Below are positions 3,290 to 41,140 of a DNA stretch of 64,000 nt, in pieces. A program made the translations under genes and the position numbers. Origin of the DNA: Alphaproteobacteria bacterium (GTDB taxonomy: Bacteria > Pseudomonadota > Alphaproteobacteria > RF32 > CAG-239); the NCBI GenBank assembly GCA_045644765.1, contig JAZRHM010000001.1:58022-122021 (forward strand). Reading direction: 5' to 3'. The notes beneath the pieces are model-generated. The model made no database searches. It worked only from the letters and a program-made list of their open reading frames with translations, and had not been told where the DNA came from. How positions within the stretch are numbered: the first letter of the stretch is position 1; each line of letters opens with the position of its first letter.

Positions 3290-4111
3290 CTATAAACTCA
3301 AACTCTTAAGTAATGCTATTTCTTCTTTCCAACCGTTTAGTTCATTAGGTGTTTCTAAAATAAAGGGCAAGTGTTTTAATTTCGGATGATTGATAATATT
3401 TACAATAGCTTCAAGTCCGATTGTTCCTTTACCGATTTGTTCATGCCTGTCTTTACGAGAGTCAAACGGCATTTTGCTGTCGTTAAGATGAATTGCTTTT
3501 AATTTGTTTAAGCCGATAATATTGTCAAATTGTTCTAAAACAGAATCGAGCTTATTAACAATATCATAGCCGGCAGAATACACATGACATGTATCTAAAC
3601 AAACACCAACTTTTTCTTTTAAGTGAACATTTTCCATAATTTGTTGAAGATCTTCAAAAGTAGAACCTACTTCGCTTCCTTTACCTGACATAGTTTCAAG
3701 TAAAACGGTAGTCGTTTGCGTTGGTGTTAAAATTTTATTTAATAATGCAGATATTTTTTCTATGCCGATTTGCACACCTTGCCCAACGTGACTACCCGGA
3801 TGAAAATTGTAATAATTGTGAGGGATTAGTTCCATACGTTTTAAATCATCAACAAAAACTAATTCGGCAAATTCGGCAGTGTTAGAGTTATCTGAACAAG
3901 GATTAAGAGTGTACGGAGCATGTGCTACAATTTTTTTATCAGGATAGACTTTCAAAAATTCTTTTATATCTTCCAAATCTAAATCTTTTGCTTTAGAGCC
4001 TTGCGGATTGCGTGTAAAAAACTGAAATGTATCAGCATTAATGGAAATGGCATTTTTTGCCATTGATACAAAACCTTTGGAAGAAGAAAGATGACAACCT
4101 AATTTAAGCAT
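3290..4111 (-). CDS. nfo: Endonuclease IV (AP endonuclease family 2)
   Basis: [13 protein letters not shown] start, [40 protein letters not shown] metal-binding motifs. Confidence 0.9.
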
Positions 4112-4239
4112 AAAAACTCCTTTCTGAAATTATATTAACAGTATAATATCATAAAATAAAACATCTATATTTTTTTGCGTTTTATTAAAAAAAGACTTGT
4201 TTTAAAAAAATATTGATGTATAAGCAATGAATAGTATAT

Positions 4240-4316
4240 CGGATTGTAGTTCAGCCTGGTAGAACGCTTCGTTCGGGTCGAAGAGGTCGCTAGTTCGAAT
4301 CTAGTCAATCCGACCA
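4240..4316 (+). tRNA. tRNA-Pro (anticodon CGG)
   Basis: Hand-folded cloverleaf. Acceptor CGGATTG/CAATCCG. D-stem GTTC/GAAC. Anticodon stem CTTCG/CGAAG with loop TTCGGGT. T-loop TTCGAAT. Discriminator A plus encoded CCA. Confidence 0.85.
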
Positions 4317-4326
4317 AATAACAAAA

Positions 4327-4349
4327 GAGCACCCTCGTGGTGCTCTTTT
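4327..4349 (+). terminator. Rho-independent terminator after tRNA-Pro
   Basis: Stem gagcacc/ggtgctc with 5-nt loop followed by TTTT. Confidence 0.6.
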
Positions 4350-4368
4350 GTTATTTGATTTTCGGGCT

Positions 4369-4470
4369 CTAGGTTCGAACTAGCGAGAAAGCTAGTTCGC
4401 ACTTCAAGCGAAAGGCGGACTTTAAGACGCCGGTGCCATAAGGCAGATGTGACGAAGCGGCGAAAATAAT
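4369..4470. repeat. Palindromic repeat element, copy A (RPE/MITE-like, about 100 bp)
   Basis: Head taggttcgaactagcgagaaagctagttcgcacttcaagcgaaaggc contains a perfect hairpin cgaactagc/gctagttcg. Shares head and tail (gaagcg..cgaaaataat) with copy B at 7674..7782. Confidence 0.55.
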
Positions 4471-4484
4471 TCGGTAAAAAATAG

Positions 4485-5384
4485 TTAAGCTTTGAATGTT
4501 TTTAGTAATTTCAAAAAATATGGGGATGGATTATCTTTGTTTAGGGCTAAGCCATAGCCGATGTAGCACAAAGCCATATAATCAAGTTGTTTTAGCTCTA
4601 TTTTTGAAGTTGTCAATTTGTTATATTCCGTCAGCGTATCAATCGCCAATTTGCGGTCAACTTTGTAAAGCGGGAAAAAATCCTGATATTTGGGCATAAT
4701 AACCATGTTTCCAAAGTCAATAATGCCGGCGAGAATATCATCGCTTTCGGGATTGAGTAACAGATTAGAGCCGCTTAAATCGTTGTGGCACAGTGCTTTA
4801 TCGGTATTTGGCAAAGTCGGTTTATTGTAATCTAAATCAATTTTATGTGGCAATAAAGCTTCTCTGACACTGGCATAATCAAAATCTTCTCTTGTGCTAA
4901 CGTCCCAATTATCAATAGCCTCGGTCGGCTCCGGCATATTTAGCTTTTTATAATCAATTTGGTGCATTAAATGAAAAAACATCGCTAAATCTTGCGCCAG
5001 TTTAAGCTGTCGCTCCGGTATAATATTTTGATATAAAACGGCATAGTCGCTTTCCGGACGTCCGTCACAAATTTTACCATATATACGCTTTGAAACAGAA
5101 AACGGATAAGTGCCGTCAATCAGTTCAATTTTGTGGATCTTACCCTCAAAATACGGCATTAAATGCGGATAAATCGTATCAATTATCATTTTTTCGCGTT
5201 GCATCGTCTGCCAAATTATTTCCGCTTTCGGAAAGCGCACAATATAATCGTCGGCATAATATGCAACCGAACGCGAACCGCTTTGTAATCGAGTAATCTC
5301 CTTAATTCCTTTAAAACCGCTATCAGCCAAAATTTTGCGGATTAAATCAAGATTATCAGCCGTCTCTTTCGTTATATATGTCAT
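4485..5384 (-). CDS. Phosphotransferase of the APH/choline-kinase fold (aminoglycoside phosphotransferase-like), substrate unknown
   Basis: YIVRFPK (beta3 lysine), HNDLSGSNLLL (compare APH(3') HGDLGDSNIFV catalytic loop), IIDFGNM (DFG). Confidence 0.6.
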   Translation of the reverse strand: MTYITKETADNLDLIRKILADSGFKGIKEITRLQSGSRSVAYYADDYIVRFPKAEIIWQTMQREKMIIDTIYPHLMPYFEGKIHKIELIDGTYPFSVSKRIYGKICDGRPESDYAVLYQNIIPERQLKLAQDLAMFFHLMHQIDYKKLNMPEPTEAIDNWDVSTREDFDYASVREALLPHKIDLDYNKPTLPNTDKALCHNDLSGSNLLLNPESDDILAGIIDFGNMVIMPKYQDFFPLYKVDRKLAIDTLTEYNKLTTSKIELKQLDYMALCYIGYGLALNKDNPSPYFLKLLKTFKA

Positions 5385-5637
5385 ATTTGTCCTCTTACTT
5401 CACTTGTATAGCTATATCGCTTAAAAAATATAAAAGTCAAGTTTAATTACCACGTGGACAGTGTATTTCATTGAAAAACAATAAAAAAATTATTACCACA
5501 CCTAGTGGGCGGTGAACAAAAGCCAACCTCACCAGTGTGGATGAGAAGGTTCGCCAACGTTAAAATAACACTTTATAAAATAATAAAAAAATTGCCTTAT
5601 CAAAAACAAGGTATTTTTTTTACAATTTAGAGGGTAG

Positions 5638-5735
5638 CAATCCGACCAACACAAGAAAACCACCTGCATGGTGTTTTTTTTGTATTCGAATTTGGTAGCT
5701 AGGACATGAACCTACGAAACATTAATTAATCATTG
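5638..5735. repeat. Degenerate duplicate of the tRNA-Pro 3' end plus downstream terminator and repeat head
   Basis: caatccgaccaa (12 nt identical to tRNA-Pro positions 4305..4316) followed by terminator-like caccTGCATggtgTTTTTTTT and ctaggacatgaacctacgaaac, resembling ctaggttcgaactagcgagaaagc at 4369. Confidence 0.45.
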
Positions 5736-5764
5736 TTGTGATATAAACAGTCATCAGATCACAT

Positions 5765-6703
5765 TCAATCATATAAACGATTCATATTACCTGTTTTGAG
5801 ATAATGTTGCATTGCCATATTTTCATCAATCTTACGTATTACCACACCGGGATTTTTATCAATTTCATCTGTTTTATTAGGCCAGTAATCATAAGGTGTT
5901 TTACTGTTTAAAAAATCACTGGCTCTCTGTGCAGCGGCTTCGATGTCTTTATCATCGTTAACAGTATAAACTCTTAACAAATGAAGAGCTCTTCCGGGAT
6001 AAGTTGTTAAAAAATCCAAATCAAGCTGCTCGGCTTTAGGAAGATCTTTTCGGCAACGAAGCATATAATCTACAAAATACTCTGCAGCATTTTCTACTCG
6101 ACCTTTATTATTATCAAATCCCTCATTATGTAAATTTTTATTTATTAGCAAAACTACTTTGCTTTTGCGTTTCAGGGCTTCAACAATTTCTGTTATGGCA
6201 ACTTTTCTGCCCCCCGTGCATACAAGGACATTAGATGCATTTGCTGTTGCTTCAGCATATGTTTCGGTGTCTTTGAAAACATGGATTGGAGTTTTTACAT
6301 ATTGCCTCATATTGATATCTTTATTAAAACCGTTAAAATCCGTATTTTCCCAGTATCTATCTGTAGTAAAATATGCTACATTTTCTGCGCCTAAGCCACT
6401 AATTTGCGTTGTTATATCATAAATTGATCCGTCTGCCACGGCCGGAGTTGTTATATATCCGGTATTTTTTGATCCTAAGTTTTTATCTAATGATTTAATA
6501 AATTTGGTGGTTACATCTTTATATCCTTCTTGATCAAAAGAATAACCCGATGTAGCAATCCTATATTTTTTATCACCTATGCCGGATTGTAGAATATCTG
6601 TAATGTCAGCTGTGTCATGGTGCACTAATTTGCAATCTTCTTTTGAGAAGTTGCCTAACAAATTAGCTTTCATTTGCTCTATTCTATCTCGGATAGAAAC
6701 CAT
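5765..6703 (-). CDS. Hypothetical protein; possible LOG/SLOG-like Rossmann segment (weak)
   Basis: 312-aa ORF. Segments IATSGYSFDQEG and NVLVCTGGRKVAITEIVEALKRKSKVVLL loosely resemble the Gly-rich loops of LOG/SLOG Rossmann proteins. No confident family assignment. Confidence 0.35.
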   Translation of the reverse strand: MVSIRDRIEQMKANLLGNFSKEDCKLVHHDTADITDILQSGIGDKKYRIATSGYSFDQEGYKDVTTKFIKSLDKNLGSKNTGYITTPAVADGSIYDITTQISGLGAENVAYFTTDRYWENTDFNGFNKDINMRQYVKTPIHVFKDTETYAEATANASNVLVCTGGRKVAITEIVEALKRKSKVVLLINKNLHNEGFDNNKGRVENAAEYFVDYMLRCRKDLPKAEQLDLDFLTTYPGRALHLLRVYTVNDDKDIEAAAQRASDFLNSKTPYDYWPNKTDEIDKNPGVVIRKIDENMAMQHYLKTGNMNRLYD

Positions 6704-6884
6704 ATTATATCCCCATTTATAAATCTTTTACTAAGTATATATCAAAATTTTATTTTTGTCTACATAAAAAATAATTATTAATAATCAGTACATATAATAT
6801 AAAATTATGATGTTGACAGAAAACAAATTACATGTTAGCATTGTGACAAATGATATGCTATTATTTGTCGAAAAGGAGAGAAAA

Positions 6885-7598
6885 ATGACAGCAGCAAGAC
6901 ATATTTCAATTAATGAAGCATTAAAAATGTTTGAAGGTGATGTTATGGAAGCAATTCCGACAGACAGAAAACGTATTGTTATCCCTGCGTTCGGTTTTGC
7001 AGGCGCAGAACCACATGAGCGTTTGGAATGGAGAGCAGATGGGACTTCTTTTATGGAAGATGTTAAAGGTTTAGCCTTTTTGAATCCTAAAGATGCAGCT
7101 GAAGGTCAAACAACACCTAATCAAATTTTGAAACAAAAAGATGGTGTGTTGCTTTGTTATGATGCTCCCGGACGTAAAGAGCAAATTGAAGGATATATAG
7201 CTACGCATCCGAATACATTTGACAATGCTGTTCGTTTGAAGCATTTTATTAATTATTTGACAAACGATGTTCTCAGCCAAGGTGGAGAAAAACCTGACTT
7301 GTGGGATTCTGATACGGCATTTGCTGCCAGTTTACGTGATGCTCCTGCTAAAGAAGATATCAAGCCCGGTATGGTATTCTCAAGTGTTAAGAAAAAAGAA
7401 GTTGTGCAAGCAATCAGAGTGCCGGAAGGTGTAACCTTTACAGGAACAGACGGACAACTTAAAAATGCTAAAAAGGGTGGGGCTTATATCATTAAAGATT
7501 CTGCCGGTATGAGGCTTATTCAGAGTGATGAATTTCCTAAAGCTTATCAGGTAATTAGAATGCCTAAAATGATGACTAAGGAACATGTAAAAGAGTAA
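6885..7598 (+). CDS. Hypothetical protein (no recognisable family); locally higher GC than its surroundings
   Basis: Strong RBS aaggagag 5 nt upstream of ATG 6885 (MTAARHISINEALK...). The track ORF starts at 6807 in the same frame. Divergent from the 5765..6703 gene. Confidence 0.5.
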   Translation: MTAARHISINEALKMFEGDVMEAIPTDRKRIVIPAFGFAGAEPHERLEWRADGTSFMEDVKGLAFLNPKDAAEGQTTPNQILKQKDGVLLCYDAPGRKEQIEGYIATHPNTFDNAVRLKHFINYLTNDVLSQGGEKPDLWDSDTAFAASLRDAPAKEDIKPGMVFSSVKKKEVVQAIRVPEGVTFTGTDGQLKNAKKGGAYIIKDSAGMRLIQSDEFPKAYQVIRMPKMMTKEHVKE

Positions 7599-7628
7599 TT
7601 ACTTATTCTTAAAGTTTAAGACAAAAAA

Positions 7629-7654
7629 CCTTACCGGTGTGGTAAGGTTTTTTT
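7629..7654 (+). terminator. Rho-independent terminator
   Basis: ccttacc-ggtgt-ggtaagg followed by TTTTTTT. Confidence 0.65.
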
Positions 7655-7673
7655 GTGTTGAATGCATTTGCAT

Positions 7674-7782
7674 TAGGTTCGAACTAGCGAAAAAGCTAGT
7701 TTGCACTCCAAACGAAAGGCACACGGAGGTGTGCCGGTCGGCAAAGCCGATGAGCGCCGAGCATGTAGCGAAGCGAAATAAT
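7674..7782. repeat. Palindromic repeat element, copy B
   Basis: taggttcgaactagcgaaaaagctagtttgcactccaaacgaaaggc ... gtagcgaagcgaaataat. About 85% identical to copy A in head and tail, with a different middle. Confidence 0.55.
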
Positions 7783-7958
7783 CTGCTTAATCCGGACTAA
7801 ATTTTACAAAACGCCAAAATCACATTCTTTTATTATCAATTTATTGTTATAATTGCATAATTTATAAAAATCTTTTTCTACTGATTTTTAGATAATTTCC
7901 CTCAAATTATTTGACTTTTACTTAAAAAATTTATATTCAAAAATACAAGGAGTGTAAT

Positions 7959-8465
7959 ATGAAATTAAAGAAAATTAGCACTGAAAAAGATGTGGAAATT
8001 GTTAGAAGTTTTTTCTATGATATATTTTGGGAAGAAGTTGATTACGATTTAATCCATTTCAAAGATTCAATAACCAAAAATCATAATTTTCAGCGTCTGG
8101 AATATTATTTAGGGTATGAAAACAATAATGTTGTTGGCATATCTGGTATATACGCAAATAATGCAAATGAATGTTGGTTAGGGTGGTTTGGTATAATACC
8201 GGAATATCGTCGCAAAGGCTATGCCTCAGCAATGATTAACTTGCAGTTAGAAATGATGAAAAATTACGGATACAAGCTATGTCGTCTTTATACTAATGAA
8301 GTTATCAATAAGGTTGCTGTGCAGTTGTATACAAAAATAGGATTTCAAAAAGATTCTGATTATGAAAATCATATAATAACAATGTTTAAACCACTGAATG
8401 ATGATACATATATTTCAAAGTGGCAAGGGATACCCTTAGGTTTTGTTCCGGAAGTGCCGATATAG
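7959..8465 (+). CDS. GNAT family N-acetyltransferase
   Basis: 168 aa. Acetyl-CoA binding motif RRKGYASAM and YTKIGFQKD. Confidence 0.7.
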   Translation: MKLKKISTEKDVEIVRSFFYDIFWEEVDYDLIHFKDSITKNHNFQRLEYYLGYENNNVVGISGIYANNANECWLGWFGIIPEYRRKGYASAMINLQLEMMKNYGYKLCRLYTNEVINKVAVQLYTKIGFQKDSDYENHIITMFKPLNDDTYISKWQGIPLGFVPEVPI

Positions 8466-8578
8466 TTCACAGATTACAAGATGCCGCTGTTCGACAAGTA
8501 ATATCAGGCAGACGGAAGTATGCCGGTGTCGTAAGGCAGATATAACGAAGCTATAATGAAAATTGTAGCTTTGCTATA
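8464..8578. repeat. Palindromic repeat element, copy C (5'-truncated at the GNAT stop codon) ending in hairpin cgaagctataatgaaaattgtagctttg
   Basis: tagttcacagattacaag...caggcagacggaagtatgccggtgtcgtaaggcagatataacgaagc aligns to the copy A tail gacgccggtgccataaggcagatgtgacgaagc. Confidence 0.45.
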
Positions 8579-8589
8579 GGGAAAAGAAA

Positions 8590-8682
8590 ATGACTAATAT
8601 TAACATGGAAATATCTGTTGCTGATATGAGTTCTAATGTTCAACATATACAAAAAGTAATTAAAGGAAGAAAAAAACATTAG
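8590..8682 (+). pseudogene. Frameshifted 5' fragment duplicating the start of the 10370..10714 gene
   Basis: About 90% nt identity to 10370..10462 (atgactaatattaa[c/a]atggaa...). One-A deletion in the poly-A tract (a7c versus a7cc) gives a stop at 8680. Confidence 0.55.
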
Positions 8683-8802
8683 AAATTGATATATATGGTC
8701 AGAATATTTTGTAGTTTAGTTCTTAATGAAATTTTTAAAATGCTTAAATATTTTTTTACTTTCCAAAGGTTATGTTTTTTTAGCCAACATAAAGGAAGAA
8801 AG

Positions 8803-9579
8803 ATGAGAAAATTCGGATTTAAATTTTTCAGTACTAATTTTCAAACAGCACCGGAAACTATCACAGAGTGTGCGGAGTTTGCGTTATCAAAAGAAGATGT
8901 TTTTATGGAATTTACGGCTGTTACAGTTACAACAAATGAAGAATTTAAGAAAATAAAAGCAGCCATAGGTAATATTGAAGTTCGTATCCATGCTTCATAT
9001 GACGGATTTGATGCCTCAAATAGTGAATTATTTCAACGAAATAAAAAAATTTTAGCATCTGCACAAAAAGCTGCTGATATATTTGATGCCAAAACCATTG
9101 TTGTTCATGCCGGCTATGGGCATAGCAAAAAACATTTAGAAGAAGCTGCCAGACAATTTAAATTGTTTAACGATGAACGTATTGTAGTAGAAAATTTGCC
9201 GTATTATGATAATAACGGCGATGAAATGCTTGGCAATATGGCTGATGAAATTGCTTATATAAGAAATGAGAGTAAATGCGGTTTTTGTTTTGATTTTTCG
9301 CATGCCATATGTTCGGCAGCTGCTCAGAAGTTGGATGTTGATAAATACTTACAAAGCTTATTTTTATTGAAGCCGACAGTTTATCACATGTGTGATGGCA
9401 ACATACCTGAAATGAAAGATTTACATTTGCATTTTGGTGAAGGAAATTATCCGCTTAAACATTATTTAAATAATTACACGGATGAAAATGCTTATATAAC
9501 AATGGAAACAGGAAACGGTTTCGAACAGAGTAATGATTTAAGGATAAAAGATTATAACTATTTGAAAGCAATGTTGTAA
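8803..9579 (+). CDS. Xylose-isomerase-like TIM-barrel (AP endonuclease 2 fold) protein, probably a sugar-phosphate isomerase/epimerase
   Basis: Motifs TIVVHAGYGHS, VVENLP, CFDFSHA, HLHFGEG. Start chosen at ATG 8803 with RBS aaggaag; the track ORF begins at 8686 inside the duplicated fragment. Confidence 0.5.
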   Translation: MRKFGFKFFSTNFQTAPETITECAEFALSKEDVFMEFTAVTVTTNEEFKKIKAAIGNIEVRIHASYDGFDASNSELFQRNKKILASAQKAADIFDAKTIVVHAGYGHSKKHLEEAARQFKLFNDERIVVENLPYYDNNGDEMLGNMADEIAYIRNESKCGFCFDFSHAICSAAAQKLDVDKYLQSLFLLKPTVYHMCDGNIPEMKDLHLHFGEGNYPLKHYLNNYTDENAYITMETGNGFEQSNDLRIKDYNYLKAML

Positions 9580-9718
9580 ATTTAAGCATTTATAATATTT
9601 TGCATACCAGATAGCATAAATTTTGTTTTTTATATAAAATGTCGTTTTGAAAACGACCAATTTGATAAAAATAAATAGTAAAACTTTTTTGTAATATTTT
9701 TTTATAAAGGAATGAGAT

Positions 9719-10312
9719 ATGAAAAAAAGTTTATTATTGGCAAGTGTTGCCTTTTCTATATTTACTACAAATGTTAATGCTATAGAACTAAAACCTTATA
9801 TCGGTTTTGATTATGTATATTCTAATGCTTCAACAAATGATGTGGTGGTCCAAGATGTTTTGGTTGGAAAAGATTTATATGAAAATAACTTTCATTCTTT
9901 AGGTATCAATGTTGGTACTTCTATAAATGATTATTTTGACATTGAAGCTTTTTACCAAAAATCAGCTGATGCTGAAGGGGATGTTGTAGCTTTAGTTGAT
10001 GGCTCAAACGTATATACCGATAAAATAAAAACAAGTTTCTATGCTTATGGTGTTGATGCTATCGGACATTTGCCGTTAAGTGAAAAATTTACTGCGATTG
10101 GTTCTGTCGGTCTAGGTCAATATGAATTTGAAATGAACGGATTTGGAGTAACAGCAAATGAAAATGGTTTAGGTGTTCGTTTAGGAATTGGTGTACAATA
10201 CAAGATTAATGAACATTTTGCTCTTCGAACGATAGCGCGTCAAACTCTGCTGGATATGGATTCTGTTGATAATATGACAGATTTTTCGGTTGGTTTTAGA
10301 TATAGTTTTTAA
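9719..10312 (+). CDS. Small outer-membrane beta-barrel protein (OMP_b-brl/OmpA-like barrel)
   Basis: Signal peptide MKKSLLLASVAFSIFTTNVNA. Alternating hydrophobic strands. C-terminal GFRYSF with terminal Phe. Confidence 0.6.
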   Translation: MKKSLLLASVAFSIFTTNVNAIELKPYIGFDYVYSNASTNDVVVQDVLVGKDLYENNFHSLGINVGTSINDYFDIEAFYQKSADAEGDVVALVDGSNVYTDKIKTSFYAYGVDAIGHLPLSEKFTAIGSVGLGQYEFEMNGFGVTANENGLGVRLGIGVQYKINEHFALRTIARQTLLDMDSVDNMTDFSVGFRYSF

Positions 10313-10324
10313 TAACATTAAAAT

Positions 10325-10361
10325 GCGAAGCTATAATGAAAAATTGTAGCTTCGCTATAGG
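10325..10361. repeat. Repeat tail hairpin, copy D (gcgaagctataatgaaaaattgtagcttcgc)
   Basis: Perfect 9-bp stem. Same element tail as 8546..8578. Directly upstream of the intact copy of the duplicated gene. Confidence 0.5.
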
Positions 10362-10369
10362 AAAAGAAA

Positions 10370-10714
10370 ATGACTAATATTAAAATGGAACTATCTGTTG
10401 CTGATATGAGTGCAAATGTTCATCATATACAAAAGGTAATTAAAGGAAGAAAAAAACCATTAGAAATTGAGATATATGGTCAGAAAGTTTTGTTTGTTTA
10501 TGATAATATTGAAATGCATGTATCTATAAAAGATATTAATACAAGTAATAATATAATACTTGCCAAGTATGTATTAATCAATCCATTATCGCTATTTAGC
10601 TTAATTACAAAATATAAAAAGTATGATTTTTTTAAAATATCATTTGAAGATATAGGTTTAAGGATAATGATAGATAATACTGTTTTTAGCTTTTGTGCTA
10701 AAAAAGTTATGTAA
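10370..10714 (+). CDS. Hypothetical protein (intact paralog of the 8590 fragment)
   Basis: 114-aa ORF, MTNIKMELSVADMSANVHHIQKVIKGRKKPLEIEIYGQK... Confidence 0.5.
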   Translation: MTNIKMELSVADMSANVHHIQKVIKGRKKPLEIEIYGQKVLFVYDNIEMHVSIKDINTSNNIILAKYVLINPLSLFSLITKYKKYDFFKISFEDIGLRIMIDNTVFSFCAKKVM

Positions 10715-10804
10715 AATGTATTGATATAAAAACAATCATACGTTAGCATGTTCAGATAATGTTTAAACAGACCTGTTAGTTATTCAGATAATAAATATGA
10801 GTAG

Positions 10805-21018: not shown

Positions 21019-21039
21019 TTTTATTGGTGCTCTGAAAAG
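21019..21039. repeat. 21-bp perfect direct repeat of the tRNA-Leu(CAG) 3' end plus 6 flanking nt (ttttattggtgctctgaaaag)
   Basis: Identical to 21195..21215, which spans the 3' end of the tRNA at 21201..21287. Confidence 0.6.
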
Positions 21040-21200
21040 AAACGCTAAGTAAAAAAGCAAGCAACCTTGCTTTTTTATCTGCAAGTTCTTTGTAACATCT
21101 TAATGAGCAAGGGAGTTTTAACGACCACAGCGAATTTAGATGCCTAAGCCATAGTCCTTTTAGGTTACCAAAAAAAATCTCCCCGAAGGGAGTTTTTTAT

Positions 21201-21287
21201 TGGTGCTCTGAAAAGGACTTGAACCTTCACGAGAATTCTCTCACAAGTACCTGAAACTTGCGCGTCTACCAATTCCGCCACCAGAGC
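21201..21287 (-). tRNA. tRNA-Leu (anticodon CAG), type II
   Basis: Reverse complement GCTCTGGTGGCGGAATTGGTAGACGCGCAAGTTTCAGGTACTTGTGAGAGAATTCTCGTGAAGGTTCAAGTCCTTTTCAGAGCACCA. Perfect anticodon stem CAAGT/ACTTG, loop TTCAGGT. Encoded CCA. Confidence 0.8.
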
Positions 21288-33889: not shown

Positions 33890-34519
33890 GTGCAGTTGAT
33901 TAAAAACAATCAAACAGGACGTTCAATGATAGAAATGCTTGGAGTTTTAGCCATTGTTGGCGTCTTGAGCGTCGGATCAATTGCCGGTTATTCCAAAGCA
34001 ATGCTGAAATACAAACTAAATAATCATGCTCAAGCGATAAATTCATTACTTAATAATTTACTGCAAATAAAAGATAGCTTACCGACATCCAATGAAACAA
34101 CATTATATTACGCTGACTTACTGAGAAAATTGAACTTATTACCTGATGGCATAACATATGTTTCCTCAACAACAATAAAAGATAAATATTTTAATATAAA
34201 CATGTCACCTTTATATTACACAAACAAAGTTGATGGTTTCGGTGAAATAGAAATTTATTTTGGAGCAAACGCTGATCACTTAGCAGATGTTTGTCGGAAC
34301 ATTATGTTTGCAGCAAAAGAAAATGCGGCTAACATATCTAACGTTCAAGTTTTGCGTAGCGGAGGCACAGCAAACACCACCAGATCCAAAATATACGGCG
34401 ATAAAGATTGCAACGGGAAAGATAAAAAATGCTTATCTTCAATCACTTTACAAGATACGGAAACATTCTGCTTAGGTTGTGTCAATTACACTAATTGCAA
34501 AATAGCAATTATTTGGTAA
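33890..34519 (+). CDS. Type IV pilin-like / pseudopilin-like protein, paralog 1 (GTG start)
   Basis: RBS ggagga. Leader VQLIKNNQTG then RSMIEMLGVLAIVGVLSVGSIAGYSKAM (Glu at +5, about 20 hydrophobic residues; compare G|FTLIELLVVLAIIGIL). Cys-rich C-terminus CNGKDKKC...CLGCVNYTNC. Confidence 0.6.
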   Translation: MQLIKNNQTGRSMIEMLGVLAIVGVLSVGSIAGYSKAMLKYKLNNHAQAINSLLNNLLQIKDSLPTSNETTLYYADLLRKLNLLPDGITYVSSTTIKDKYFNINMSPLYYTNKVDGFGEIEIYFGANADHLADVCRNIMFAAKENAANISNVQVLRSGGTANTTRSKIYGDKDCNGKDKKCLSSITLQDTETFCLGCVNYTNCKIAIIW

Positions 34520-40519: not shown

Positions 40520-41140
40520 ATGAAATTATTTAAGAACAATCAATACGGAAGAAGCATGGTTGAGATGTTGGGTGTTTTGGCCATCATCGGTGTTTTATCA
40601 GTTGGCGGTATCGCAGGTTATTCTAAGGCGATGTTTAAATATAAATTTAACAAAACAATGGACATTATTACTCATGTTATCTATCGTATTATGGAATTAG
40701 ATGAATCGGATTTTGGAGGAAGCGGAATATATGAAAATACCGAAATGCACAGATACGGAATTATGCCTGAGTGTGATGTTAGCGAAGTAAGTCCTTATTG
40801 CGAATTACCTTTAGGTAAACTAGGTATGTCTCTAGGAGGATACGGAATTCACGGACTCGGTGGAGGTTTACAGATTGACCTTGATCAAGAACCTCTTGAT
40901 GCTTGTATTGCTTTTTTAACATCAGAAATTTATAAAAACGTACCCAACGACTGGTGGAAACCATTATCTGATGAAGGCACAGGAGGATATCTCGAAGTGT
41001 GCAACGGTAATGGATGTACGGCGGCGATACCAAGGGGAAGCTCAAAAATAAATCTAACAAATACCGAGATTCTAACAGCTTGTACAACATGCCAAACCGG
41101 AGAATGTACTATACATTGGGTTATTAGAGAAAAAGATTAA
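40520..41140 (+). CDS. Type IV pilin-like protein, paralog 2
   Basis: RBS aggag. Leader MKLFKNNQYG then RSMVEMLGVLAIIGVLSVGGIAGYSKAM. C-terminal Cys cluster CNGNGCTAA...CTTCQTGEC. Promoter-like TTGCAA(40460)-N15-TATAAT(40481). Confidence 0.6.
   Translation: MKLFKNNQYGRSMVEMLGVLAIIGVLSVGGIAGYSKAMFKYKFNKTMDIITHVIYRIMELDESDFGGSGIYENTEMHRYGIMPECDVSEVSPYCELPLGKLGMSLGGYGIHGLGGGLQIDLDQEPLDACIAFLTSEIYKNVPNDWWKPLSDEGTGGYLEVCNGNGCTAAIPRGSSKINLTNTEILTACTTCQTGECTIHWVIREKD

Follow-up and report, generated by a model that had tools for sequence, protein, structure and literature searches.

What kind of element are the short, hairpin-rich intergenic repeats that lie among the accessory genes of the 64-kb stretch of DNA analysed here (the window)? 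A preliminary description of the locus had noted that this repeat family coincides with accessory genes, an observation that our analysis supports, and had read it as a dispersed element like the Rickettsia palindromic elements (RPEs) or MITEs. We compared the repeats, here named E1, with related contigs and strains (labelled L001-L134). With a probability of roughly one half, we consider E1 copies to be small, non-coding and non-autonomous structured modules of att type that belong to a tRNA-anchored integration or cassette array. The hosts of E1 are uncultured gut-type Alphaproteobacteria MAGs, in which the repeats would mark the points of insertion and reshuffling of accessory gene blocks.

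Layout of the accessory patch

The patch begins at a tRNA-Pro(CGG) gene (4240-4316, plus strand; ARAGORN; Rfam tRNA, 62 bits), which anchors the array and whose last 28 nt, termed T (GCTAGTTCGAATCTAGTCAATCCGACCA), are the source of copies within the modules. Displaced tRNA 3′ fragments are found inside the patch. Both the tRNA context and these fragments had been overlooked previously. Copy A of E1 lies downstream of the tRNA gene at a distance of 40 nt, and between them terminator a (4317-4355) was read directly in the sequence as a symmetric hairpin of A-tract, stem-loop and T-tract that is bidirectional by shape. Terminator a, the adjoining inverted copy of T (T′) and the head of copy A are 93% identical in L002.

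No tRNA fragment follows copy A. The first cargo gene encodes an APH-family phosphotransferase (299 aa; 4485-5384, minus strand; Pfam PF01636, E=3.8e-12) and is followed by E2 (5424-5637, plus strand), which forms the right end of cargo islands, is non-coding and is conserved across related contigs (79-95% identity in L007, L083 and L134, weaker in L031 and L126). Its features are a covarying hairpin, a sigma70-like promoter (CTTAAA-17-TAATTA) and a threefold direct repeat of GTGGACAGTGTAT / GTGGGCGGTGAAC / AAGGTAT type. The 11-nt displaced tRNA-Pro 3′ fragment CAATCCGACCA (5638-5648, plus strand) is identical to tRNA positions 4306-4316 and, judged by its sequence, represents a putative attR-type scar; the same succession of E2 and tRNA fragment recurs in L007 and L134. 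Behind it lie terminator c (5654-5681, read in the sequence and conserved in L007) and the remnant of another module head, TGGTAGCTAGGACATGAACCTACG (5693-5716, plus strand). By-eye comparison with L087 (1411-1440), where an intact version is present, resolves this remnant into a T′-like stretch and an hp1 5′ arm of 'GTAGG' type. The close relative L007, in which copy B directly adjoins terminator c, has neither this remnant nor the next two cargo genes of the window (312 aa, minus strand, and 263 aa, plus strand; 5765-7598), ORFs for which the Pfam search returned no match. Terminator d (7623-7655, read in the sequence) precedes copy B, and the degenerate tRNA 3′ fragment AATCTGCTTAATCCGGACT (7780-7798, plus strand; compare AATCTAGTCAATCCGACCA), also read in the sequence, lies directly 3′ of it, at a position where L001 and L002 hold intact 19-nt tRNA fragments. 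The patch continues with a GNAT acetyltransferase gene as further cargo (7959-8465, plus strand; Pfam PF00583, E=3.3e-14), copy C, and further genes (8803-10714, plus strand; Pfam and ORFs) that code for a TIM barrel of xylose-isomerase-like type and an OMP beta-barrel, together with a 114-aa ORF.

E1 copies in the window

Four related copies had been proposed, of which A and B are true relatives and C is a head-less copy, while D does not belong to the family. That A and B each follow a terminator was confirmed, with a stem-loop and T-run at ~4317-4355 and 7623-7655, respectively. Copy A (4356-4470, plus strand; covariance-model match 4368-4453, 79.3 bits) is composed of a degenerate T′ (4356-4384; 20/28 matches to the reverse complement of T), hp1 (4376-4384/4391-4399, loop GAGAAA) whose 3′ arm equals T(1-9), a linker, hp2 (4414-4431), hp3 (4434-4445) and a tail with CGAAGC that reaches 4470, 15 nt from the end of the APH gene. 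Copy B (7660-7782, or 7660-7798 at its widest, plus strand; match 7672-7756, 96.5 bits) comprises a degenerate T′ (7660-7688), hp1 (7680-7688/7695-7703), hp2 (7718-7735), hp3 (7738-7750) and a tail with GCGAAGC. The hairpin cgaactagc-N6-gctagttcg, formerly given as perfect in both, is so in A (4376-4399) but includes one G-T pair in B (7680-7703). The two heads share 91% identity over 47 nt, and the head pattern occurs at these two places only, against an expectation of 0 by chance.

Copy C (8486-8578, plus strand; match 8468-8546, 27.9 bits) begins right after the GNAT stop (8465) without the 5′ arm of the head, just as had been described. It lacks T′ and the hp1 5′ arm, retains GCTGTTCGA as a remnant of T(1-9), and continues with hp2 (8507-8524), hp3 (8527-8538) and a tail hairpin (8546-8574); its homologue in L083 has a complete head. 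The proposed copy D amounts to the hairpin GCGAAGCTA-N13-TAGCTTCGC (10326-10356, plus strand) and was rejected as a member of E1 (7.6 bits, E=3.3), having only the tail hairpin in common with copy C. This resemblance exists because both lie within a local duplication of ~170 bp (8546-8712 and 10326-10493), which also includes the first ~30 codons of ORF 10370-10714. An exhaustive covariance-model scan found no further copy in the 64 kb beyond A, B and C, all three of which fall within 4.2 kb at the tRNA-linked patch.

Anatomy, tRNA link and structure conservation

In the related contigs an E1 unit consists, in this order, of a bidirectional terminator, T′, a purine-rich loop, T(1-9), a core of ~75 nt, T(10-28) and a terminator. 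T′ is an inverted copy of the last 28 nt of the tRNA and across arrays has 19-24/28 positions in common with the reverse complement of T. For Pro and Asn, the fragment agrees with T(10-28) at 18-19/19. The split of T is always within the T-loop after TTCG (TTC in L134), and the core, with two covarying and structure-conserved hairpins, sits exactly at the T-loop position. The head of E1 derives from the tRNA's own T-arm and varies with the adjacent tRNA; its hp1 3′ arm agrees with T(1-12) at 9-11/12 positions where the copy is of cognate type. At least 12 independent arrays tie E1 to a tRNA gene 3′ end and to displaced tRNA fragments, with all copies in the orientation of their tRNA and one core shared by seven tRNA types (Pro-CGG, Pro-TGG, Pro-GGG in two hosts, Asn, Phe and Arg). 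L001 and L002 display the order tRNA, terminator, E1, perfect 19-nt tRNA fragment, terminator, E1, fragment. Some modules inside tRNA-Pro arrays have a T type that is not the cognate one (the second copy of L001, L087, and 5693-5716 of the window). In a scan of 185,579 genomes the head motif was found at the tRNA-Pro locus only, in three related MAG species representatives.

Among 25 distinct E1 copies, 89% of cells were paired compared to 26-38% in slid controls, and 11 pairs showed double changes. Complete swaps were seen in hp3 (CGGC/GCCG, AAACC/GGTTT, CGCC/GGCG and GCC/GGC), and the hp2 stem GGCGGGC...GAACGCC carries GGAA, GTAA, GAAA or GCAA loops, all of GNRA type. On the plus strand, hp1 contains 13 G-T against 3 A-C pairs, and folds of the plus strand exceed those of shuffled sequences in stability (z = -2.9 to -3.95). 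The core is kept in hosts ranging from 31% to about 50% GC.

Strain polymorphism and mobility

In close strains the block from the APH to the 263-aa gene has been lost or relocated, with breakpoints inside E1 copies. L088, L082 and L081 lack the block and hold an A/B hybrid element, and in L083-85 it sits between the GNAT and TIM-barrel genes, with C/A and B/C hybrids at its borders. E1 copies have a mosaic make-up and vary much more than their 98%-identical flanks. Between L110 and L114, whose Nfo proteins are identical, the difference is a non-coding module of 274 bp related to E1, which abuts the tRNA 3′ end exactly and has the direct repeat AATCTAGTCAATCCGACCAAATAA at its boundaries; it appears to have inserted cleanly there, although a deletion could also explain the difference. 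The E2 island of L134 (31% GC in a host of ~50% GC, 85% identity to E2 of the window) retains a fragment of Pro-CGG type and is a probable case of horizontal transfer that we count in favour of the att-module reading. No integrase or recombinase gene was found within 6-10 kb of any of the at least 12 arrays examined, and therefore the catalyst is hypothetical. Only in L118/L119 does a large serine recombinase abut a tRNA-Pro of this type, and that element is without E1.

Possible nature of E1

The preliminary reading, a miniature transposon spread genome-wide and clustered here by chance, is largely refuted and in our view highly improbable. It would fit intergenic, multi-copy, hairpin-rich repeats of ~100-140 bp, with T′ and the 3′ fragment as inverted repeats at the unit ends; these supposed terminal repeats, though, vary with the neighbouring tRNA, the copies are confined to tRNA-linked arrays and the head motif to the tRNA-Pro locus of three MAG species, and searches of plasmid collections, phage collections and IMG/VR gave no match. 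Neither target-site duplications nor transposon-type ends nor a transposase were seen, and no copy is inserted in-frame within an ORF as RPEs are. Local duplication, suggested earlier in case further copies were wanting, does not fit copies that are present in many other genomes, always at tRNA genes. That the repeats are decaying scars of old integrations and local duplications, with incidental hairpins and neither function nor mobility, is improbable as well. Such decay would suit D and the tail of C, which stem from local duplication, the erosion of T′ and of many fragments, and the tandem identical copies in L053 and L134 that resemble unequal crossing-over. Neutral scars would not be expected to hold structure while sequence changes, as hp2 and hp3 do through compensatory changes, or to keep one core across such different GC contents and tRNA types.

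Two further readings give the hairpins a single-stranded role. E1 might possibly, though this is unlikely, be a structured non-coding RNA, small or tRNA-like, carried by islands, transcribed either through read-through from the strong promoter of the tRNA or from a promoter that escaped recognition, and then trimmed at a tRNA-like 3′ end (acceptor 3′ strand and ACCA, then the terminator). Compensatory changes together with plus-strand G-U pairs in three helices, the GNRA-type loops, the stable plus-strand folds and the shared orientation with the tRNA would agree with this. Rfam yielded no family match to E1 even at E<=10, strong terminators bracket the units, a conserved E1 promoter is lacking because the upstream T′ region is variable, the 'covariation' of hp1 merely tracks the adjacent tRNA, and the long T′/T helix needed for a tRNA-like acceptor end is not conserved. 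Quite doubtful, too, is a folded single-stranded DNA recombination site as in integron attC or CTX-phage attP(+), in which T′ would pair with T(1-9) and T(10-28) on one strand to rebuild a double-stranded attB mimic, the hairpin-rich core would bulge out at the crossover point in the T-loop, cassettes would be inserted at the tRNA gene by a trans-acting recombinase, and the target would switch by a mere change of T and T′. The unit order with its split exactly in the T-loop, the conservation of structure rather than sequence, the G-T excess in hp1, the single core for seven tRNA types, the cassette-like array with breakpoints within E1, the terminators on both sides and the lack of a promoter-like site upstream of A or B all speak for it, as do the motifs GCGAAGC and GCGAAAG, which presumably recall very stable DNA mini-hairpins. 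Against it, most copies have a degenerate T′(1-19), which in many cases cannot pair with the unit's own fragment (A, B, L019, L030 and L064), the fragment of L053 is itself decayed, no IntI-like or Xer-like gene is nearby, GTTCGAC fails the integron R′ consensus GTTRRRY, and we know of no source of single-stranded DNA for E1.

Under the att-module reading, the tRNA-Pro 3′ end would have been a repeated entry point for mobile DNA, every arriving unit bringing a replacement tRNA 3′ end and its own terminator and shoving the older tRNA fragment and older units downstream. E1 copies would serve as recombination arms and landing sites, and recombination at E1 copies or inside them might add, remove or move the gene blocks that lie between (such as APH, 312-aa, 263-aa and GNAT). 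Movement would be catalysed in trans by a site-specific recombinase whose gene lies elsewhere, homologous recombination between copies would probably help, and the hairpins might serve recombination as folded or architectural DNA. Several points weigh against this. A classical attP has a contiguous tRNA-derived core, and the standard attP model accounts neither for the 75-nt split nor for the inverted copy. Ordinary double-stranded arm sites have no need of a single-stranded function (RNA or ssDNA), to which the free covariation of hp3 and the GNRA-type loops of hp2 point. The strain rearrangements could have come from RecA-type recombination among the repeats alone, the L110/L114 difference could be a deletion, and non-cognate modules are present in the tRNA-Pro array.

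Comparison with known systems

E1 resembles RPEs and bacterial MITEs in size, hairpins and repetition and differs from them in not being dispersed, never lying within an ORF, having tRNA-dependent ends without target-site duplication and, compared to RPEs, in its non-Rickettsia lineage. Integron attC and CTX-phage attP(+) are hairpin sites at cassette boundaries that conserve structure while sequence varies, and in E1, as in these, a double-stranded mimic could form when inverted copies of a target-like site fold. Unlike them, E1 has a tRNA gene as its anchor and no IntI gene, attI, R″/L″-L′/R′ symmetry or GTTRRRY.

Regenerated tRNA genes and displaced fragments mark the ends of islands, older elements being driven inward as newer ones arrive (PMC4383910; 10.1101/2020.12.28.424599; PMC9897764). 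E1 arrays share with Islander-type islands and the Prochlorococcus tycheposons an intact tRNA at one end with displaced direct-repeat 3′ fragments further in, the displacement of older units downstream, degenerate remnants, and accessory or defence-type cargo (PMC4383910; 10.1101/2020.12.28.424599). Unlike these, E1 arrays have no integrase gene in or near them, many units are gene-free and of 180-275 bp, and E1 has an inverted tRNA-end copy and a structured core found with at least seven tRNA types. The class II T-loop tyrosine integrase of mycobacteriophage Ms6 uses a 26-nt attP core and can be retargeted by editing it, because attP/attB identity defines the target (PMC1762012). The tRNA segment is the same in both, from the T-stem 5′ strand to the acceptor 3′ strand (PMC1762012), and T is the segment that such integrases take as att core. 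In E1, unlike the Ms6 core, a stretch of ~75 nt splits this segment within the T-loop, and its reverse complement stands in front of it; closer to Ms6 is only the related 274-bp module of L114, with a contiguous 24-nt core. CIMEs, and the recombinase-less pseudo-SCC cassettes of composite SCC islands that share their traits, are kilobases in size and recognisably ICE- or SCC-derived, whereas E1 is a miniature with a conserved folded core. CIMEs are like E1 in being att-flanked, recombinase-less, arranged in tandem with other elements at the 3′ end of one gene and presumably moved in trans (PMC5704250).

E1 copies within the window

Three copies of E1, a hairpin-rich non-coding module, were found in the accessory patch behind tRNA-Pro(CGG): A (4356-4470), B (7660-7798) and C (8486-8578). 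The common head reported for A and B in the preliminary description was recovered: both copies carry TAGGTTCGAACTAGCGARAAAGCTAGTT, which matches twice in the window against zero matches expected by chance, and they share a 47-nt block at 91% identity. A second matching block, with 76% identity, connects A (4413-4458) and C (8506-8551). It was also right that a stem-loop followed by a T-run lies directly before each of A and B (read in 4000-10800) and that C is head-truncated at the stop of the GNAT acetyltransferase gene, since this copy starts straight after the stop codon and has no 5′ arm of the head hairpin. The proposed fourth copy, D (10326-10356), did not hold up as a family member. It has only the tail hairpin in common with C and scored 7.6 bits (E=3.3) in a covariance model built on the three helices of E1, in which B reached 96.5 bits, A 79.3 bits and C about 28 bits. 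A scan of the 64-kb window with this model and all speed filters off revealed no copy beyond A, B and C (4368-8546). The tail hairpin of D lies inside a local duplication (8546-8712 versus 10326-10493, 90-94% identity) that also copies the first ~30 codons of the ORF at 10370-10714, and a remnant of the duplication at 8590-8682 forms a truncated pseudo-start (MTNINMEISV...KKH*). With Rfam 15 only three tRNAs in the window reached the gathering score, and at E<=10 no family overlapped A, B or C.

Two other repeats were noted in the window. Five to six tandem 27-nt repeats at 1403-1563, within a SurA-like ORF (1253-2452), code for repeated copies of the motif YEEEMQRRA. Repeats of 116-119 nt (33909-34024, 40539-40654, 61157-61272 and, inverted, 60599-60717; 65-78% identity, both orientations) make up a family that is unrelated to E1 and possibly represents paralogous gene segments.

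Anatomy of E1

E1 units are best described with reference to T, the last 28 nt of the adjacent tRNA gene (T-stem 5′ strand, T-loop, T-stem 3′ strand, and acceptor 3′ strand with ACCA), and to T′, its inverted copy. Every unit shows the order terminator, T′, purine-rich loop (GAGAAA, GAAGAA or GAGGAA), T(1-9), core, T(10-28), terminator. T′ agrees with the reverse complement of T at 19-24 of 28 positions, with 16 consecutive perfect matches in L053, a locus behind tRNA-Phe, and T′(1-19) is decayed in most copies. The 3′ arm of the head hairpin (hp1) matches T(1-12) at 9-11 of 12 positions in cognate-type copies, and the downstream fragment matches T(10-28) at 18-19 of 19 positions (Pro-CGG, Pro-TGG, Asn). 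From these matches it follows that the perfect hairpin described previously is the T-stem and half of the T-loop paired with their own inverted copy; the apparent covariation of hp1 merely reflects the neighbouring tRNA. The ~75-nt core is tRNA-independent and consists of ACNACAAGCGAAAGGC, hairpin hp2, GCCGGT, hairpin hp3 and GATGAGCGC...GCGAAGC. Its position is constant, after TTCG of the T-loop (TTC in L134, a locus behind tRNA-Pro(GGG)).

An orphan module head of another tRNA type (TGGTAGCTAGGACATGAACCTACG) is found at 5693-5716 and is of the GTAGG type, as is the intact head in the related locus L087. It lies at the left edge of a ~1.96-kb insertion with two genes, which is missing from L007, a locus 97% identical to the window. 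Downstream of tRNA-Leu(CAG) (21201-21287), a region on the minus strand (21025-21170) follows an E1-like grammar without the E1 core: a terminator, then TGGTAACCTAAAAGGAC..., which is the tRNA-Leu 3′ end in inverted and degenerate form, then roughly 100 nt of different sequence that includes a terminator, and finally a 15-nt direct copy of the 3′ end, CTTTTCAGAGCACCA.

Anchoring at tRNA genes and related arrays

Copy A is located 40 nt downstream of an intact tRNA-Pro(CGG) gene (4240-4316), which stands at the boundary of the patch as a target tRNA of an island would. The last 11 nt of this tRNA are repeated at 5638-5648 with a terminator after them, and the stretch just behind copy B (7780-7798) contains the tRNA 3′ end in a degenerate 19-nt form. 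When one genome per species was scanned (185,579 genomes), the head motif was detected in three human-gut-type 'Alphaproteobacteria bacterium' MAGs, in each of them at the tRNA-Pro locus only; the three loci are L007, L002 and L001. Six of 56 matches in a metagenome pattern scan were real, the other 50 being chance matches in unrelated high-GC contigs. In L002, one of the related loci, the order is tRNA-Pro, terminator, E1, AATCTAGTCAATCCGACCA, terminator, E1, the same 19-nt fragment, terminator, and L001 is organised in the same way. The P0001 contig terminates at the array. Look-ups with a small island-linked protein led to further arrays. Taken with the six real metagenome matches, they show the E1 core also behind tRNA-Pro(TGG), tRNA-Pro(GGG) (two hosts), tRNA-Asn, tRNA-Phe and tRNA-Arg; tRNA genes adjoin E1 in L001, L002, L019, L030, L053, L064, L126 and L134. 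Displaced repeats of the tRNA end, as expected for islands, occur as 18-19/19-nt fragments in L001, L002, L019 and L030, and those in L126 and L134 were found by direct reading.

Tandem units occur in two of these loci. L053 (654-1015) contains two near-identical E1 units head to tail with a period of 177 bp, and L134 (8890-9340) contains three with a period of about 187 bp, where the first fragment alone is perfect and the next two carry one common degenerate version. This suggests a mixture of reintegration and unequal crossing-over. The Nfo protein of the window was not found as a record by look-up. Nfo homologues with 70% identity (P0119, P0061) belong to a clade with tRNA-Pro directly before nfo, and were set aside as there is neither an array nor E1 at these loci.

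Conserved structure of the hairpins

Among 25 distinct copies 89% of cells were paired, compared to 26-38% with slid partners, and both-side changes were seen in 11 pairs (25 copies; 20 in an earlier set), counts that lean towards structure as the alignment was fitted to the model. Direct reading of hp3 gave the stems CGGC/GCCG, AAACC/GGTTT, CGCC/GGCG, GCC/GGC and GTCC/GGAC. In hp2 the outer GGC/GCC pairs are constant, one inner pair alternates between G-C and A-T, and the same stem carries GGAA, GTAA, GAAA or GCAA loops. G-T pairs outnumber A-C pairs in hp1 (13 versus 3), i.e. the plus strand is favoured. Taken together, the pairing counts, the stem swaps in hp3 and hp2 and the G-T bias argue that a single-stranded fold, of either DNA or RNA, is under selection.

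E2 and the cargo islands

A further non-coding element of the window, E2 (5424-5637), is likewise conserved. It comprises a sigma70-like promoter (CTTAAA-17-TAATTA), three direct repeats (GTGGACAGTGTAT / GTGGGCGGTGAAC / AAGGTAT) and a hairpin whose stem covaries between loci. It is followed by the 11-nt tRNA-Pro fragment and then a terminator (5424-5652 overall). In L007, L020, L031, L083, L126 and L134 cargo islands have E2 as their right end, and wherever it recurs a terminator and an E1 head come next. A conserved small ORF of 49-80 aa (MSKETEKLIKIILPDLLNYLEML...; 136 homologue clusters; no Pfam domain) precedes E2 in L007, L020, L031, L126 and L134 and diverges from it at the cargo-island start. 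It lies at 9252-9401 of L080 (= L007 2446-2598) on the minus strand, in L031, and at 6001-6168 of L126 and 6001-6183 of L134. One island with this ORF encodes a MamI-type restriction-modification system; the window has the APH gene in place of the ORF. The L134 island has 31% GC versus about 50% in its host, and its E2 is 85% identical to that of the window and keeps a Pro-CGG-type fragment, which implies horizontal transfer with the junction at CCGACCA.

Strain differences and searches for a recombinase

Evidence for mobility and REARRANGEMENT comes from contigs encoding the GNAT protein and from a module that distinguishes two loci with an identical Nfo protein, L110 and L114. The GNAT protein is encoded on 23 contigs, which were compared with the window and are 98% identical outside the elements. 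In L088, L082 and L081 the tRNA is followed by terminator a, a hybrid with the head of A and the body of B, and then GNAT, without the block that runs from APH to the 263-aa gene. In L083-85 this block is relocated and separates GNAT from the TIM-barrel gene; its flanks are a C-left/A-right and a B-head/C-right hybrid, and L087 has a B-type body under a head of another tRNA type (GTAGG). The hybrids in L081-L088 place the breakpoints inside E1 copies, which are mosaic and far more variable than their surroundings. A simple reciprocal crossover between the window and L083 fails, as the hybrids require more than one exchange. L114 differs from L110 by a 274-bp non-coding module located precisely at the 3′ end of tRNA-Pro and framed by the 24-nt repeat AATCTAGTCAATCCGACCAAATAA. 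It shares its terminator and degenerate T′ with copy A, its core is longer and contains CGAAGC motifs, and its tRNA segment of 24 nt is contiguous; it is a relative of E1 and not E1 itself. Presence/absence polymorphism exactly at att boundaries, a further property of islands, is thus seen both in L114/L110 and for the L081-L088 block.

The integrase or recombinase gene expected inside an island was not found: no integrase, transposase or other recombinase is encoded in the patch of the window, nor in the 6-10 kb around any array. When IMG/VR was scanned with the tRNA fragment and with two core patterns, only chance matches in high-GC contigs came up, and BLASTN of copy B against phage and plasmid collections gave no match. 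The one serine recombinase seen was in a related species (L118/L119, GCA_017464685.1), where a 506-aa large serine recombinase ORF (8281-9866) runs convergently towards tRNA-Pro(CGG), and the last 12 nt of the tRNA lie within the ORF as called. This ORF lies at the edge of a >10-kb element with an N6/N4 methyltransferase and a SNF2 helicase, and no E1 occurs there.

Interpretation

tRNA genes are classic landing sites of genomic islands, and known models require an integrase within the element and a contiguous tRNA-derived att core. Arrays of tRNA-linked islands are already known. We estimate a probability of roughly one half that E1 is a non-autonomous, miniature att-type module of a tRNA-targeted array for integration and cassettes. 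An integrating island restores the tRNA gene that it splits and leaves a displaced fragment, later arrivals pushing earlier ones inward (PMC4383910; 10.1101/2020.12.28.424599; PMC9897764), and this accretion logic explains why tRNA fragments, arrays and accessory cargo occur and why each unit has its own terminators. Segment T is the attP core of T-loop-type integrases, and editing the core of Ms6 retargets it to other tRNA genes (PMC1762012), which provides a rationale for one core family at many tRNAs. Three features stay outside the standard island model: the presence of T′, the interruption of T by the core precisely within the T-loop, and the fact that hp2 and hp3 are conserved at the level of structure.

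All three features would be accounted for together if E1 were a recombination site that folds as a single strand (attC- or CTX-like), with T′ and T rebuilding an attB duplex, a reading we consider unlikely, given the decay of T′(1-19) noted for most copies. The covariation is just as compatible with a structured RNA, which is possible but doubtful, as the units lie between terminators and a promoter scan found no sigma70-like site before A or B. Neutral scars fit poorly and are a very improbable explanation. Even less can be said for the MITE or Rickettsia palindromic element (RPE) family initially proposed, which fits poorly and appears improbable in the extreme: the three copies in 64 kb are tied to a tRNA gene and not dispersed around the chromosome (three model hits at 4368-8546, head motif at the tRNA-Pro locus only), A, B, C and the 25 distinct copies elsewhere are all intergenic with no in-frame insertion in ORFs, and no target-site duplications flank the units.

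As a tentative proposal of low probability, E1 might be the recombination site of an undescribed tRNA-anchored, integron-like cassette system without a local integrase, whose target would be programmed by nucleic acid. One E1 strand would fold, T′ and the split T rebuilding the duplex of the tRNA gene 3′ end, and would keep the conserved hairpin core at the point of crossover. The target would be specified by the sequences of T and T′ and not by a protein, so that the same core could colonise Pro, Asn, Phe and Arg tRNA genes. We found no account in the literature searched of gene-less 180-275-bp units with a conserved folded core, both orientations of a tRNA end, seven tRNA types and no local recombinase.

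The arrays of these uncultured gut-type Alphaproteobacteria depart from the known island models in three respects. Behind their tRNA genes lie stacks of reshuffled gene blocks, with genes for restriction-modification, kinases and acetyltransferases among them, separated by miniature modules that contain no gene and are conserved in structure; every module has the tRNA end in both orientations; and a single core is adapted to seven or more tRNAs. As active recombination sites, the modules would constitute a compact and maybe reprogrammable cassette-exchange system, which could account for differences in accessory genes between strains of a poorly known gut lineage. As RNAs, they would be a new class of structured RNA tied to mobile DNA. 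Either way, E1 modules disrupt the assembly of metagenomes at these loci, and annotation can mistake them for tRNA pseudogenes or MITEs.

Comparison with known element classes

Several further candidates were considered and rejected. No motif of a hammerhead, twister or other ribozyme was seen by eye, and Rfam gave no such match. A miniature IS200/IS605-type element, or a TnpB guide-RNA-like arrangement with the core as ends and the fragment as guide, disagrees with the unconserved 3′ boundary, lacks a transposase and leaves the flanking T′/hp1 unexplained. A casposon-like target duplication does not fit a unit without terminal inverted repeats of its own. If T′ were a retron- or primer-binding-site-like sequence, the predicted cDNA layout would be a reversed core, which is not seen, and a tRNA-like fold of either strand is contradicted by an acceptor-type helix that is unconserved between copies.

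MITEs have the fixed terminal inverted repeats of a parent transposon, whereas the inverted ends of E1 are copies of the adjacent tRNA and differ by tRNA type. The Class II T-loop attP core (Ms6 type) is a contiguous copy of T-stem, T-loop, T-stem and acceptor 3′ strand, whereas that of E1 is interrupted behind TTCG by the ~75-nt core and only the L114 module has it in one piece (24 nt). An integron attC site is an imperfect palindrome (R''-L''...L'-R') with a GTTRRRY core and adjoins intI/attI; E1, in contrast, has three separate hairpins, its GTTCGAC does not fit this core, and the patch of the window contains no integrase.
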